DNA of 31,022 nt from Promethearchaeati archaeon. GTDB taxonomy: Archaea > Asgardarchaeota > Heimdallarchaeia > JABLTI01. Below, in pieces: positions 6,696-24,134 of this stretch; the first letter of the stretch is position 1, and the number at the start of each line of letters is the position of its first letter. The notes below the pieces were generated by a model, which made no database searches, was not told the DNA's origin, and saw only the letters and a list, made by a program, of their open reading frames with translations. Position numbers and translations under genes: made by a program. The stretch covers positions 1 to 31,022 of the forward strand of contig JABLTI010000022.1 in the NCBI GenBank assembly GCA_013166835.1. Direction: 5' to 3'.

Positions 6696-8585
6696 GTGAG
6701 CTCTATGACTGAAGATAAAGATGAATCTCTCGATTGTCAGATTGTTTTTGAGGTTTCAAATGAAATTGCGAACAAAATTGGTGGGATTTATACTGTCATA
6801 GCATCGAAAGCTCCTGAAATGCAACGATTAATGGGTCCTGGCAATTACTTAACTATTGGGTTATACAATGCCTTCAAAGCACGAAACGATTTTGAGGAAT
6901 TGGATACTCCAAAAGATTTCGTAGATGTTTTTAATGCAGTACGAGCTGAAGGCATTGATGTGAAATATGGTCGATGGATTGGTGGGGGAGCAGTTGAAAC
7001 AATCCTTGTTGATCCTTCTTTCCTATTAGATGTCCCTTTAGTTACCGGGAAATCTGATCGAAAAATAGACCAAATCAAAGGAGTTCTTTGGAACTGGTTT
7101 GATATTGATTCTTTATGGATGCCTGAGGTTTTTGATCCTATGGTGGCTTTTGGTTGGGCTGCTGGTGTTTTAGTTTCCAAGTTAATTGAGTCCCCTCGAT
7201 TCAAAAACAAACGAATTGTCACACATTTTCATGAATGGATTTCCGGTCCGGGTTTACTTTATCTCAAACGTAACAATATTGATGTCGCTACAGTTTTTAT
7301 GACTCATGCCACTCAACTTGGTAGAAATATTGCCATGGGTGAAGAGGACATCAACCTAGTTCTTGATGACCTTTTAGCGAAAGGCGAGATCATTCCTCCG
7401 CAGAAAGCCTATCAATACCATGTCGAGGGAACACACCAAATTGAAGTTATCTGTGCGAAGGAAGCTGATGTTTTAATTACTGTCTCAGAAGCTGTTGCTC
7501 GAGAAACTGAAGGAATCCTAGGACATAGAGCTGATTTTATCATTCCAAACGGGATTAATCTTGAAGGCTTATCAAAGAAAGATGATTTAATTGTAAAACA
7601 TAAAGAAGCTCGAGTGAAACTTGCGCAATTTACTGAAGCGTACTTTAAACCTTATTATACAGTTAGTATAGAAAATACGTTAGTAATCCACATTTCTGGT
7701 AGGTATGAATTTCATAACAAAGGAATAGATGTTTTTCTTAACGCATTAAAACTTGTAAATGAAGAATTAAAAACAAGTAAAAAACAAAAAGAAATTCTCG
7801 CATTTATTTGGGTTCCGGCTCCAGTATCTGGAATTAAAACTGATGTTTTGAATGCTTTTGAACACGCTCGAGAGTTAAGAGAGATTTTACAGACTCCCAT
7901 GAAAAAAATGGAAGAGTGGTTAATACAGATTCAACCAAAATATGAAGACCATTTGAAATCGCGTACTTTGCATGATTTCTTCTCTAAGAGTGAAGTGAAA
8001 AAAATCGCAGAACTTGTTAAGAAAACCAAGGAAAGCAAAAATGATAGTAATTATCCCCCAGTTTGTCCTTTCAATTTATATGAGAGAGATACCATTTTTC
8101 AGACATTGAAGGAACTAGATTTGATGAATAAGCCCAACGATTTAGTCAGAGTTATCTTTTATCCCGTTTATCTCTCAAAAAATGATCAATTATTAGCATT
8201 GGATTACTATGATGCAGTTGCGGGTTGTGATATGGGAATTTATCCATCAACCTATGAACCCTATGGTTTGACTCCATTAGAAGCTCTTGCTCTTGGCGTG
8301 CCAGCTGTAACAACTGATTTGTCTGGTTTTGGGTTGCTAGTTAATGAGCAACTTAGCGAAGAGAACAATGGGATTTTTGTTCTAAATAGAAAAGGGCGTA
8401 CAAATGAAGATGCAGCTATAGATTTAGCAAAGATAATTGTAAAACATTCGCAGCTTTCAAATGAAGAAGTAACAAATGCTAGAATCACTGCTCGAGAAAT
8501 CTCAGAATTATATAGTTGGCAAAATATAATCAAACAATACAGCACATCTTATGATGAAGCTGTTAAAAGAATACACAAAAATTAA
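6696..8585 (+). CDS. Glycogen synthase, GT3 family
   Basis: FEVSNEIANKIGGIYTVI (KxGG), HFHEW, THATQLGR, SGRYEFHNKG.D, catalytic E-x7-E motif YEPYGLTPLE, TTDLSGFG. Confidence 0.92.
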   Translation: MSSMTEDKDESLDCQIVFEVSNEIANKIGGIYTVIASKAPEMQRLMGPGNYLTIGLYNAFKARNDFEELDTPKDFVDVFNAVRAEGIDVKYGRWIGGGAVETILVDPSFLLDVPLVTGKSDRKIDQIKGVLWNWFDIDSLWMPEVFDPMVAFGWAAGVLVSKLIESPRFKNKRIVTHFHEWISGPGLLYLKRNNIDVATVFMTHATQLGRNIAMGEEDINLVLDDLLAKGEIIPPQKAYQYHVEGTHQIEVICAKEADVLITVSEAVARETEGILGHRADFIIPNGINLEGLSKKDDLIVKHKEARVKLAQFTEAYFKPYYTVSIENTLVIHISGRYEFHNKGIDVFLNALKLVNEELKTSKKQKEILAFIWVPAPVSGIKTDVLNAFEHARELREILQTPMKKMEEWLIQIQPKYEDHLKSRTLHDFFSKSEVKKIAELVKKTKESKNDSNYPPVCPFNLYERDTIFQTLKELDLMNKPNDLVRVIFYPVYLSKNDQLLALDYYDAVAGCDMGIYPSTYEPYGLTPLEALALGVPAVTTDLSGFGLLVNEQLSEENNGIFVLNRKGRTNEDAAIDLAKIIVKHSQLSNEEVTNARITAREISELYSWQNIIKQYSTSYDEAVKRIHKN

Positions 8586-8604: not shown

Positions 8605-9615
8605 TCAGCATTTACTAAGATCAGTAGGTCTTCTAGTCTCAACAACTTTAATGTTCTCAATTTCATCCATGCTGAGTTCCATACCTGCTTTTATTTTTCG
8701 CTTTATAGCAGAGAATAAAATCTTGTAAAGACATTCAGAACACATTTTTCCACCAGTTAAATGCATCATATTGTATGAGTCAATATATTCATCTCTACTA
8801 GCAGTAACTTTTTCTACTTCAACAACAGTAGCATCAGTAGCACAATGAATGTTAATATCTTCCTCAGAAACAAAAATACTGTTGAAACAAACCATTCTAC
8901 CTACGTTTTCAAATTCCTCTATGGTTTCTTTTATCACTTGTTCAGGATCACTCATATCTTTAGTAAACATGCTTAACAGCGGAACAACTTTTATCGGAGT
9001 AAAATTGTCATGATTAATACAATAATCTCCATCTGAAAGATTCAAGAGTAATGGGCATGGAGTGTAGTACCTCTTATCAGCAATTTGAGTATAATCAACT
9101 TCTAGAACGAGAATATTATTAGTAATCTTAGAATAAGTCCATTTAAACATCTCAATTATACCTTTAGTAGTAACCGCACTTGTTTCAATAATGTTCCAAT
9201 CACGATCATTTAGCTCAGGAATCTTGGAAAACTTCTGTCCTATTTCTAAAGCGCTAAGAGTATTAGGTAAATCAATTTTATTAATCAATACCAGAATAGG
9301 GATATCATTCGCTTCAGTCAAAATAAGCATATTTTGAAATTCTTTGAGAGATTCATCTAATCGTTCATGATCACTCGCATCAATAACGTATAAAACAATG
9401 TCAACAGTGTTAAGATAATCAACCCATAATAATCTGAAGCTTTTTTGACCACCCATGTCCAAAATATTGAGATGAAAATCTATCTCCGAAAAAGTTACTT
9501 GTTCTAAATTTATACCTACAGTTGGAATCGTTTTTGTCATTTTATGCTTTGTAAAGATATCAATAATGGTTGTTTTTCCAGCATTATCTATCCCTACGAA
9601 TCCTATTGTTGGCAC
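8605..9615 (-). CDS. Arf-family small GTPase with Cys-rich C-terminal extension
   Basis: G1 GIDNAGKT, G2 PTVG, G3 DMGGQ, G4 NKID, G5 SA; Arf-type R.LW..Y and YVIDASD.ER; about 170 extra C-terminal residues. Confidence 0.9.
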   Translation of the reverse strand: MPTIGFVGIDNAGKTTIIDIFTKHKMTKTIPTVGINLEQVTFSEIDFHLNILDMGGQKSFRLLWVDYLNTVDIVLYVIDASDHERLDESLKEFQNMLILTEANDIPILVLINKIDLPNTLSALEIGQKFSKIPELNDRDWNIIETSAVTTKGIIEMFKWTYSKITNNILVLEVDYTQIADKRYYTPCPLLLNLSDGDYCINHDNFTPIKVVPLLSMFTKDMSDPEQVIKETIEEFENVGRMVCFNSIFVSEEDINIHCATDATVVEVEKVTASRDEYIDSYNMMHLTGGKMCSECLYKILFSAIKRKIKAGMELSMDEIENIKVVETRRPTDLSKC

Positions 9616-22011: not shown

Positions 22012-22770
22012 CTAATCCTTAAGTTTAATCACTGACTGTCTTTTTTCTAATTCTATGTTAATCCTATTTTTAAATTGTAACGTTAGTTTTTCATTTTTTA
22101 TTGTCGGTTTAACAGTATAAACAAGCATTTCTACACCATTAGCAACAGCTTCTCTAAATTGGAAGCTGAATTCTGGGTCAGTTTCTTTATTTGGTGAAAA
22201 AATTATTGGATCATCTCTCATACAAACAAATAAAGCAATCGCTCTACTACCTTTTGACTTAATATCGATTAATTCACGAAGATGTCGAGCTCCTCTTTTA
22301 GTGGGAGCATCAGGAAAAAGAGCTTTTTTTCCTTTAACCAAGGTTACACCTTTTACTTCTACAAAGCATGTTTCTTTGTCATTAGACAACAAGAAATCTA
22401 AACGACTGCTTCCATATTTTACTTCTGCTTTTATATTATTGTAATTCGAGATTTCATTTATCCATTTATTAGTGATTGCTTGTTTTACCACTTGATTAGG
22501 TAAGCTTGAGTTTATAGTAATAATCCGGTTTTCGTGTTTTACAGCAAGAATATCCCAGTTTGTTTTTCTATCTTTACGTCTTAATGGTTCTCTAATAATC
22601 AATCTAGCTTTCGGCAACAATAATTCCTTCATTCGACCTGGATCATGCAAAAAAGCTTTTTCTGTTTTATTGGATCCTTCGAGTTTAAGATTCACCAAAA
22701 AACGATTAGGTCGATCAATAAAAGTAGCATATCTTATGTTTCCCTCAACAACTACTTCTCTTTCATGCAT
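22012..22770 (-). CDS. sfsA: DNA/RNA nuclease SfsA
   Basis: RPNRF, HDPGRMKEL, EVKYGSSRLDFLL, FVEVKGVTL, FPDAPTKRGARHLREL. Confidence 0.95.
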   Translation of the reverse strand: MHEREVVVEGNIRYATFIDRPNRFLVNLKLEGSNKTEKAFLHDPGRMKELLLPKARLIIREPLRRKDRKTNWDILAVKHENRIITINSSLPNQVVKQAITNKWINEISNYNNIKAEVKYGSSRLDFLLSNDKETCFVEVKGVTLVKGKKALFPDAPTKRGARHLRELIDIKSKGSRAIALFVCMRDDPIIFSPNKETDPEFSFQFREAVANGVEMLVYTVKPTIKNEKLTLQFKNRINIELEKRQSVIKLKD

Positions 22771-22913
22771 ATGTGTGATAGACCATTTACTTGTATATAT
22801 TTTTTATTAATTTTTTCGTACAATTATTTGTATTCTGTTTTTTTTCATTAAAAAATTGAGTATAGGGAGAATTCTTTTTAAACTGTGAATTTGAACAAAT
22901 TTGAGTGATATAG

Positions 22914-24134
22914 ATGGCATTCTTCGAAAAATATAAAGAGCGGACAGAGACCGAGTTACTTGTAGAAGTACGAATGGCAAAAGAACTTGGTATTTATCCA
23001 TATTTCAAAGAGTTGAATAGCGAACAAGGGCCCATTGTAGCCATGAATGGTAGAGAAGTTATTATGCTTGGTTCCAATAACTATCTCGGTTTTACTACAG
23101 ATAAGCGAATTAAGAACGCTGCGAAAAAAGCAATAGATGAATTTGGTGTTGGTTCCACCGGATCAAGATTGCTAAATGGTACAATGGAATTACACGTAGA
23201 ATTAGAAGAACGTTTAGCAAATTTCTTTGGAACGGAAGAAGCTGTTATTTTTTCAACTGGTATGCAAGCAAATCTTGGGGCATTATCATGTTTTTTAGGA
23301 AAAGATGACTGGGTTATATCTGATGAACAAAATCACGCTTCAATTATAGATGGTATAAGACTTGGTGGATTACCATCTAAACACAAGAAAATCTACAAAC
23401 ACAATGATATGGCTGACCTTGAAAGATGCTTAAAGGAGATACCTGAAGGCGAACATGCACTAATCGTTACTGATGGTGTGTTTTCTATGCATGGAGACAT
23501 TGCACATGTAGATGTCATCACAGAATTATCTGAAAAATATGGTGCCGGTGTATATGTAGATGATGCTCATGCAGTTGGTGTTTTGGGTCCAAATGGTAGA
23601 GGTACCGCTCATCACTTTGGCGTCGAAAAGAAAGTAGACATCATAATGGGTACTTTTTCTAAGAGCTTTGCATCTATTGGTGGATATGTTGCTGGTTCAT
23701 CGTCAATTTGCCAATGGATTAAACATCGTGCAAGATCCTTAATATTCAGTGCTAGTGCTCCCCCAGCTTCTGTTGCTTCAGTTATTGCTATTTTAGACAT
23801 CATAGAAAAGGATGATTCCATCCGACAGAAACTTTGGGCAAATACGAAAAGATTACGAGATGGCTATTTAGCTGCTGGATTTGATATCGGCAAATCAGAA
23901 ACACCAATTATACCAATAATTGTTGGAGCAGATATGCCTACATTTTATCTCTTCAAGAATCTCTTTGAAGAAACACCAAGAAGTGTTTATACAAATCCCG
24001 TCCGTGCTCCTGCGGTTCCTGATGGAGGTCAATTACTTCGTACATCTTGCCAAGCATCCTTTGATTTTGACACACTAGATGAAGCTGTTGAGATAATCAC
24101 GAAACATGGAAAAGCACTTGAAATCATAAAATAA
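22914..24134 (+). CDS. Alpha-oxoamine synthase (PLP-dependent), most like bacterial serine palmitoyltransferase
   Basis: GIYPYF, GSNNYLG, GSRLLNGT, FSTGMQANLG, NHASIIDG, DGVFSM.GD, DDAH, PLP-lysine motif GTFSKS, IFSAS. Confidence 0.8.
   Translation: MAFFEKYKERTETELLVEVRMAKELGIYPYFKELNSEQGPIVAMNGREVIMLGSNNYLGFTTDKRIKNAAKKAIDEFGVGSTGSRLLNGTMELHVELEERLANFFGTEEAVIFSTGMQANLGALSCFLGKDDWVISDEQNHASIIDGIRLGGLPSKHKKIYKHNDMADLERCLKEIPEGEHALIVTDGVFSMHGDIAHVDVITELSEKYGAGVYVDDAHAVGVLGPNGRGTAHHFGVEKKVDIIMGTFSKSFASIGGYVAGSSSICQWIKHRARSLIFSASAPPASVASVIAILDIIEKDDSIRQKLWANTKRLRDGYLAAGFDIGKSETPIIPIIVGADMPTFYLFKNLFEETPRSVYTNPVRAPAVPDGGQLLRTSCQASFDFDTLDEAVEIITKHGKALEIIK

Follow-up and report, generated by a model that had tools for sequence, protein, structure and literature searches.

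A predicted long-chain-base synthase of Asgard archaea from a clade beside the bacterial serine palmitoyltransferases

Archaea are considered to lack sphingolipids. A gene resembling bacterial serine palmitoyltransferase (SPT) on a contig of an Asgard archaeon raises the question of what its product makes. The gene, whose product we call P0001, lies on contig JABLTI010000022.1 of a Promethearchaeati archaeon; the window that we analysed is the whole stretch of 31,022 nucleotides, which is contig C6 of the host genome (G000; 3.56 Mb, 85% complete, 6.8% contaminated). From its sequence, predicted fold and gene context in relatives, P0001 probably starts a long-chain (sphingoid) base.

The reading frame runs uninterrupted from ATG to TAA, and all five motifs that a sequence-only reading of this DNA had quoted are found in the intact frame: GIYPYF (residues 26-31), GSRLLNGT (83-90), FSTGMQANLG (113-122), IMGTFSKS (244-251) and RSLIFSAS (274-281). 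Pfam Aminotran_1_2 matches the protein with an E value of 1.6e-58. The top of 55 matches in the Protein Data Bank (PDB) is the SPT of Sphingobacterium multivorum (3A2B; 388 bits, E 4.6e-115), with lower scores for a Thermus alpha-oxoamine synthase (AOS; 300 bits), E. coli Kbl (267), Sphingomonas SPT (248-259), cysteate fatty acyltransferase (CFAT; 218 and 208), human SPT2 (186) and E. coli BioF (183). The Sphingobacterium enzyme is also the top fold match of the AlphaFold model (pLDDT 96.7; TM 0.94, rmsd 1.3 Å, 46% identity), and the best of 20 NCBIfam families is NF047600 (SerpalmtaseCFB) with 484.4 bits. By alignment and fold search the catalytic set of fold-type I AOS enzymes is complete (H141, D216, A218, H219, T247, K250 and R376). 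The residues of the pyridoxal 5'-phosphate (PLP)/serine site and of a hydrophobic patch of the Sphingobacterium SPT are named in the available text of PMC10196870; retained from the PLP/serine site are Y28, Y30, F31, N55, G83, S84, H141, S191, D216, H219, T247, S249, K250, F278 and A280. The position of the amino-acid gate, Ser84 in P0001, is Ser in SPT and in 8-amino-7-oxononanoate synthase, Val in Kbl and Thr in 5-aminolevulinate synthase (ALAS), as far as the text seen of PMC11906848 goes; the ALAS (HemA) family itself gives P0001 261 bits, below its cut-off of 339.

The position of P0001 within the family was examined in three trees: 313 rows by FastTree, 90 rows under LG+G4, and 62 of those 90 (28 left out) under LG+C20 with bootstraps. 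The SPT references score above their own NCBIfam cut-offs (Sphingobacterium 723, Sphingomonas 833, Roseomonas 624); the others were Kbl and BioF of E. coli, Kbl or BioF proteins from tdh or bio operons of Bacillales, and fused proteins that we take, from a motif, to be LCB2-LCB1-like. The reference set is small and its eukaryotic branches are long, and neither ALAS nor characterised CFAT is among the rows. Each of the three trees unites the archaeal copies in a single clade (support 0.995; 93; 97/94), and this clade is the sister of the bacterial SPTs (joint branch 0.925 by FastTree; SH-aLRT 99 under LG+G4; 82/86 under LG+C20). Its members come from the Heimdallarchaeia families f1 (the host's own), f2 and f4, from the Asgard families f19 and f20 and from Thermoplasmata, together with a Thorarchaeota-labelled protein and other proteins. 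Approximately unbiased (AU) tests reject a grouping of the archaeal copies with Kbl (p=0.0009) and with Bacillales BioF (p=0.030). The sequence-only reading had preferred an SPT-like enzyme to Kbl or BioF and had named branching with either as the result that would overturn it; the PDB, fold and NCBIfam rankings and the trees uphold the preference, and both branchings are rejected. In its mode of action, too, the archaeal clade would be a relative of SPT, as part of the long-chain-base reading that we consider likely.

The strongest independent evidence is the gene context in relatives. Beyond the Asgard archaea, the SPT-like gene is present in 16 of 118 genomes from a single order of Thermoplasmata, where the genes are arranged as acyl-CoA ligase, AOS, KdsR-like reductase: the ligase is directly 5' of the AOS gene in all 16, and the reductase directly 3' in 15, the remaining locus being broken by a gap of Ns. 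Because these carriers are kin, this is the operon of one lineage and not 16 events. The best NCBIfam family of the ligase is long-chain-fatty-acid-CoA ligase (FadD type), and that of three of the reductases, with more than 200 families matched, is NF049977, 3-ketodihydrosphingosine reductase KdsR (334, 304 and 331 bits); archaeal reductases adjacent to AOS genes rank KdsR as first or second family. Asgard neighbourhoods were counted within 1.5 kb at 46 loci of 42 genomes, leaving out one genome with its gene split across two contigs. A KdsR-like reductase adjoins eight of these loci (f1, f2 and f4) and a ligase two; neither is found at any of 17 paralogue loci. A long-chain ligase and a KdsR-like reductase beside the AOS gene in relatives point to a long-chain base as the product.

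Both partners have candidates in the host genome, where the sequence-only reading had proposed to look for acyl-CoA ligases and for ceramide synthase and reductase. A ligase on C146, one of two genome matches to that profile, is 46-49% identical to the operon copies, and a reductase on C102 is 65% identical to the copy that adjoins the SPT-like gene in locus L090; the ceramide synthase bCerS, which was part of the same proposal, was not found. A census of KdsR-like reductases at E<=1e-48 gave 42 of 400 Asgard genomes, among them 16/31 in f2 and 0/12 in f1, but it scored at most six candidates per genome and misses the inserted f1 form, and these counts are not evidence of absence. For comparison, among the best 80 loci of the alignment search, which are mostly bacterial, at least 23 have a bCerS-like and at least 27 a CerR-like gene; both labels follow from linkage to Sphingobacterium SPT, and the counts are underestimates.

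On this evidence the pathway would run as follows. A long acyl thioester would be supplied either as acyl-CoA by a FadD-type ligase or by a type I synthase without a release domain (described below), both of which have genes in the host. P0001, probably soluble and homodimeric given its likeness to the solved SPTs, would hold a small amino acid, for which L-serine is the likeliest choice, in an aldimine with PLP at Lys250 and His141, and condense it with the acyl chain under loss of CO2; the residues and the fold are observed, and the predicted product is a 3-keto base. A KdsR-like reductase, linked to the AOS gene in relatives, would then reduce this ketone, giving an amino alcohol of the sphinganine type. 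Since that reductase stands beside the AOS gene, reduction would directly follow condensation, which is the order of eukaryotes and Bacteroides and not that of bCerS followed by CerR. More speculatively, N-acylation or head-group addition could involve GNAT, hexapeptide acyltransferase, PlsY-like or sulfotransferase candidates.

Several observations weigh against this interpretation. The archaeal clade lies outside the SPTs and is not nested among them, and the joint branch has 82/86 in the best model, so that no characterised enzymes bracket its function. P0001 reaches no NCBIfam cut-off; its NF047600 score lies below the curated cut-off of 640, which the Sphingobacterium control exceeds with 723.5 bits. 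Around the substrate or acyl site, P0001 departs from the Sphingobacterium SPT at five positions (T82, L86, M117, I277 and N56). GSRL and TFSKS are found in Bacillus-type BioF as well, and neither the GTFSKS motif nor the gate Ser is exclusive to SPT, so that motifs alone cannot discriminate, just as the sequence-only reading had cautioned for AOS specificity. P0001 has no pathway partners in the window, and at 36 of the 46 Asgard loci both partners are missing from the surrounding 1.5 kb. The adjacent archaeal reductases score 159-334 bits and fall short of the KdsR cut-off of 400, a value that the census found exceeded in none of the 400 Asgard genomes; the host reductase scores 186 for KdsR, second to PRK06179, has 337 residues with an insertion and is unlinked to P0001. 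In the host genome, 85% complete, neither a 106-sequence profile nor tblastn matched bCerS; a search for a TLC-type ceramide synthase had no match either, but its control was also silent. An SPT look-alike of Nostoc did not form the product, although that protein grouped with BioF (PMC8895605, text available in part), and the targeted Black Sea survey of Ding et al. (2024; PMC11334938) reports no archaeal genome carrying an Spt-like gene. Lastly, the case is built on sequence, a predicted structure and gene context.

The alternative that survives best, to which we give a modest share of the probability, keeps the chemistry and changes the product: alanine, glycine or another small amino acid would be joined to an acyl-CoA that is short, of medium length, branched or isoprenoid. 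The resulting non-membrane amino ketone or amino alcohol would be a signal molecule or a secondary metabolite and might carry a sulfate or acetyl group. The placement outside the characterised SPTs, the altered pocket residues and the lack of an N-acyltransferase match in the host genome are compatible with it, as is the promiscuity of AOS enzymes noted in the available text of PMC11906848. The Thermoplasmata cluster adds hexapeptide acyltransferase-like genes, which follow within 1.5 kb in 10 of 16 cases, and a divergent sulfotransferase in four of the six longer loci. Against a different product stand the linked genes themselves, a ligase of the long-chain FadD type and a KdsR-like reductase, and the retention of three hydrophobic residues of the Sphingobacterium enzyme, Tyr25, Phe28 and Tyr27, the last being part of the acyl-site lining (PMC10196870, from the same partial text); the CqsA-type family scores just 189 bits.

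It is very unlikely that P0001 is a BioF (8-amino-7-oxononanoate synthase) making a biotin precursor for the host's biotin-dependent carboxylase. Relatives are automatically annotated as that enzyme, the Bacillus BioF with its GSRL and TFSKS is 43% identical, and the host encodes BirA along with a set of biotin carboxylase genes; but besides the rejected grouping, P0001 scores 367 bits for TIGR00858, below the cut-off of 426, and the rest of the route was not found. There was no bioB in any of five genomes and no bioD over the cut-off in the same five, with positive controls detected, no bioW or bioY in the host genome, where a bioA query gave 28% matches only, and no recognisable bio gene beside the archaeal AOS genes in the loci read. 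A cysteate fatty acyltransferase for the base of a sulfonolipid (capnine) has a slightly smaller chance still: it shares the fold family, and sat and cysC occur elsewhere in the host genome, but the CFAT structures score far below the 388 bits of SPT, and where CFAT has Gly81-Ala82 and Lys280 (PMC13692747, as far as its text was available) P0001 has Gly-Ser and Ala by our numbering. Least probable of all is Kbl, the glycine C-acetyltransferase of threonine catabolism, at 38-44% identity to the E. coli and Bacillus enzymes: its grouping is the most strongly rejected, Ser84 stands where Kbl has Val, no tdh gene is adjacent, and the host family has a separate Val-bearing paralogue of Kbl type. 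In the host this second AOS lies on C205, ended by the contig edge, and C88 carries a gene that we take to be an SDR-type threonine dehydrogenase (the paralogue and this gene lie near each other in the host family), so that threonine breakdown is covered by these two; a Zn-dependent tdh gave nothing over the cut-off in five genomes.

The gene is native to this Asgard lineage. Its GC content at third codon positions (GC3) is 0.24, against 0.21-0.24 for five neighbour genes, all 11 other genomes of the host family contain an orthologue, and a public-run contig of 2,254 bases, possibly from the source sample, joins sfsA with nearly all of the P0001 gene; a run from another study covers most of the gene with few differences. 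These data rule out contamination, a binning or assembly artefact and recent transfer. The nearest named loci, 86-96% identical, are labelled Ca. Heimdallarchaeota (one at 72% is labelled Bathyarchaeia), and the contig carries an Arf-family GTPase, in agreement with the Asgard host that had been supposed from sequence alone. A census of 400 Asgard genomes at E<=1e-100 found the SPT-like gene in 43: 12/12 in f1, 16/31 in f2, 3/12 in f4, 10/14 in f19 and 2/135 in f20. The f19 type has named carriers among Lokiarchaeia, namely Ca. Harpocratesius repetitus and two genomes labelled Promethearchaeum sp. At the same threshold the gene is in none of 22 genomes of f3, a family of the host's class; we suspect that f3 is Hodarchaeales, in which case the proposed sister group of eukaryotes would be without it. 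Four Asgard genomes have two diverged SPT-like copies (L296/L297, L301/L302, L303/L304 and L312/L313), which may differ in substrate or form a heterodimer. An apparent AOS fusion in L331 was an artefact of a gap of Ns.

As to origin, we consider it likely, with somewhat more assurance than for the function, that the archaeal clade goes back to one old transfer from bacteria and is unrelated to eukaryotic SPT. The best trees set it beside bacterial SPT with the LCB2-like domains elsewhere, it is sister to eukaryotic LCB1 or LCB2 in no tree, and its spread over the Asgard families is patchy; copies of Thermoplasmata and f20 are nested among those of Heimdallarchaeia, which implies transfer between archaea. 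Two points tell the other way: the clade is nested in no sampled bacterial phylum, and a tree that joins it to LCB2 is not rejected (AU p=0.116), with the long eukaryotic branches and few references already mentioned. The suggestion in the sequence-only reading that the gene would bear on the origin of eukaryotic sphingolipids finds no direct support here. Descent of eukaryotic SPT from this clade is unsupported, and that the archaeal lineage was the source of LCB1/LCB2 seems improbable. A third AOS paralogue in f2 (L076, L079, L080 and L397-L401), with a GVRLLT loop and TLSKA, groups in the best tree, at 99/91, with an AOS associated with a polyketide synthase (PKS) and with the LCB2-like domains, on long branches that leave the placement unsure; its neighbours are not lipid genes. 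If Asgard archaea have a relative of LCB2, this paralogue is perhaps more likely to be it than the P0001 clade.

The host also has genes that could make the acyl chains. A search for acyl carrier protein (ACP) domains found on C123 (23453-39624; L388, L389) a Pfa-like type I fatty-acid/polyketide synthase of 3,599 residues, with two NMO-type domains, KS, AT, a second KS-like domain, two ACP, KR, DH and a C-terminal phosphopantetheinyl transferase (PPTase); a scan of 3,515 of its residues gave no thioesterase match. Genes for carboxyltransferase, biotin carboxylase, carrier and BirA lie beside it. A Heimdallarchaeota PKS close to polyunsaturated fatty acid synthases is described in the accessible text of PMC7472256. 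Type I synthases of this kind occur in 66 of 400 Asgard genomes, and in nearly all Heimdallarchaeia except f3. They are found in 30 of the 43 SPT-like carriers, but 36 of the 66 synthase genomes lack the SPT-like gene, and none of the 118 Thermoplasmata genomes searched has a synthase, the carriers there having the ligase within the operon instead; an obligate pairing of the two is thereby rejected as a rule. No ACP gene stands next to the archaeal AOS copies read. In genome G016 the synthase (L390, G016:C1:480000-499999) is in two frames of 1,506 and 2,653 residues, followed by a duplicated hydrolase-plus-carrier pair beside CRISPR-associated genes; either the assembly or a rearrangement in the recent past would account for this.

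The sequence-only reading took its host to be an isoprenoid-ether-lipid organism, and this premise is not supported. Geranylgeranylglyceryl phosphate (GGGP) synthase (PF01884) was not found in any of the 12 f1 genomes, that is the host and its 11 relatives; the host has, beside the type I synthase and the biotin carboxylase set, ten matches to the PlsY family (PF02660; C28, C59, C74, two on C80, C106, C130, C184, C203 and C258). G010 has six such matches and G016 three, one of them two genes away from the megasynthase; PlsY in Asgard archaea was known already (PMC6431249, text seen in part). CarS is in the host genome and in all five genomes tested. Across the 400 Asgard genomes, GGGP synthase is in 285: five of the 43 SPT-like carriers against 280 of 357 non-carriers. 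By family it is in 1/31 of f2, 3/14 of f19 and 123/135 of f20, and was not found in f3 (0/22), f4 (0/12), f5, f6, f16 and f25. This inverse pattern is seen in two lineages, within Heimdallarchaeia and for f19 versus f20, and is broken by f3, which lacks GGGP synthase, megasynthase and SPT-like gene alike. A missing GGGP synthase gene does not prove missing ether lipids, because MK-D1 lacks the gene and its co-culture nonetheless had isoprenoid ether lipids (PMC7015854, accessible part); the host may, from its gene content, be no plain isoprenoid-ether organism. A more far-reaching possibility, which we put forward tentatively and hold to be doubtful, is that f1 Heimdallarchaeia build their membrane in part from acyl chains of their own: the Pfa-like synthase would feed P0001 and the KdsR-like reductase for a sphingoid base and PlsY-like enzymes for acyl-glycerol lipids, no canonical GGGP synthase having been found, and the SPT lineage would be old in Asgard.

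Other observations concern later steps that a lipid pathway might have. A full-length bCerS-like gene (310 bits) lies in the Thermoplasmata genome G401 (L417:6195-7364), near UbiA-like and sulfotransferase genes, and a diverged one (113 bits) in the Heimdallarchaeia genome G010 (L418:6392-7426); none was found in G016, G134 and G137. GNAT genes stand beside five of the 46 Asgard loci; they are generic, of 206-215 residues, with PaiA as best NCBIfam family (70 bits) and no orthologue in the host genome, and as a ceramide synthase the divergent GNAT is a weak lead for these reasons. The host has sat, cysC and two sulfotransferases clustered on C2 (4335-8553; L410) and a third sulfotransferase on C201 (6840-7871), and all three resemble the one beside the Thermoplasmata operon; by sequence this suggests sulfation of a lipid or metabolite that depends on 3'-phosphoadenosine 5'-phosphosulfate. 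On C260 (2820-5390; L396) a stand-alone ACP, an FkbH-like protein and an AcpS-type PPTase follow one another.

The features of the window around P0001 are collected in the table below. In agreement with the sequence-only reading, no bio or tdh gene is among the neighbours, and there is no local operon: the MFS transporter, pdxST and sfsA are conserved in the host family only. The intergenic position upstream of P0001 holds a divergent GNAT gene in five f1 relatives and a KdsR-like reductase in one. The transporter stands next to the P0001 orthologue in several genomes of the family, and its part in the pathway is an unproven candidate link; PdxTS make the cofactor of P0001, yet with adjacency confined to the family this may be coincidence. 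A sigma-70 scan gave five sites against 6.0 expected, and this promoter type is not the archaeal one. One RNA-library piece of 151 bases is identical to the P0001 gene; its run shares 0.09 of words, which is insufficient for a call of transcription. Farther off in the window, the Arf-family small GTPase (8605-9615, minus strand) has a Cys-rich C-terminal extension of about 170 residues without any Pfam match, and a 629-residue glycosyltransferase (6696-8585, plus strand), by eye presumably a GT3-type glycogen synthase, has an NCBIfam match limited to its C-terminal part.

Table. P0001, its functional residues and its neighbours in the window (positions of the whole stretch)
Feature	Position	Strand	Basis
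Predicted long-chain-base synthase, PLP-dependent alpha-oxoamine synthase (P0001), 406 aa, archaeal SPT-like clade	22914..24134	+	
GSRLLNGT loop, residues 83-90, with amino-acid gate Ser84	23160..23183	+	Alignment columns; PMC11906848 and PMC10196870, each in part
His141, PLP-stacking/substrate-carboxylate His (His138 of Sphingobacterium SPT)	23334..23336	+	PDB match, alignment
GTFSKS PLP-binding motif with catalytic Lys250 (Lys244 of Sphingobacterium SPT)	23649..23666	+	Alignment
AT-rich intergenic stretch, 143 bases, between P0001 and divergent sfsA; probable promoter region	22771..22913	.	
MFS/Atg22-like transporter, 134 bases 3' of P0001	24269..25744	+	
pdxT and pdxS (PLP synthase), convergent to P0001	25775..27381	-	
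sfsA nuclease-like gene, divergent; function unrelated, serves as synteny marker	22012..22770	-	

Our literature search, which did not cover subscription papers, found no description of an archaeal SPT and nothing on a Heimdallarchaeal type I fatty acid synthase by that name. The shift from isoprenoid-ether to fatty-acyl membranes in the ancestor of eukaryotes is called an enigma in PMC12872458 (2026), which reports an overall signal of sphingolipid metabolism in Asgard archaea, with SPT unnamed in the main text and three supplements; the available part of a preprint (bioRxiv 10.64898/2026.05.08.723234) names GBA2, SGPL1 and SGPP1. Sphingolipids in sediments are currently attributed to bacteria alone, to go by the accessible text of PMC12619533. 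Our comparisons suggest that some archaea make sphingolipid-like lipids. If so, archaea among the closest relatives of eukaryotes would have membrane lipids of a sphingolipid, eukaryote-like type, and the sediment sphingolipids would need rereading. The SPT-like gene is concentrated in those Asgard lineages in which GGGP synthase was not detected, the ones with the least understood membrane chemistry. The candidates are concrete: P0001, predicted to be soluble, its putative partner reductase and the operon of three genes can be assayed after expression in E. coli, and the named Lokiarchaeia carriers open enrichment cultures to a search for sphingoid bases.

Among known systems, the SPT of Sphingobacterium multivorum (3A2B, 8GUH; NF047600) is closest: it is of similar size and, like P0001, has no evident membrane anchor. 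P0001 differs by two small insertions and by T82, L86, M117 and I277 in place of Ala79, Phe83, Phe114 and Met271, and the archaeal relatives are flanked by FadD and a KdsR-like reductase whereas the Sphingobacterium gene is flanked by bCerS and CerR. In the Bacteroides route by 3-ketosphinganine reductase (BT_0972; NF049977 KdsR), the likeness is an adjacent archaeal reductase in the KdsR-like range, although the archaeal scores stay under 400 bits and the host copy is unlinked. Eukaryotic SPT (LCB1/LCB2) is of the same family and shares the GTF(S/T)KS motif, but at 186 bits and about 36% identity it is more distant; it is a membrane-bound heteromer, whereas P0001 is a single chain predicted to be soluble. 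The ceramide pathway of Caulobacter and Sphingomonas (Spt, bCerS, CerR) has the same first step as predicted for P0001 and differs in bCerS, which has no match in the host; the CerR of Caulobacter is periplasmic (bioRxiv 10.1101/2023.11.08.566215, text seen in part). A precedent for an AOS fed by a megasynthase is SgaAB of Pseudomonas, an iterative type I PKS and an AOS with SPT activity that yield sphinganines (PMC12134224, text available in part): the host has both types of gene, but they are unlinked and its synthase is Pfa-like. Since the curated SPT cut-off is not reached and the bCerS/CerR context is lacking, we class the P0001 clade separately, as a putative archaeal variant of the homodimeric bacterial SPT.

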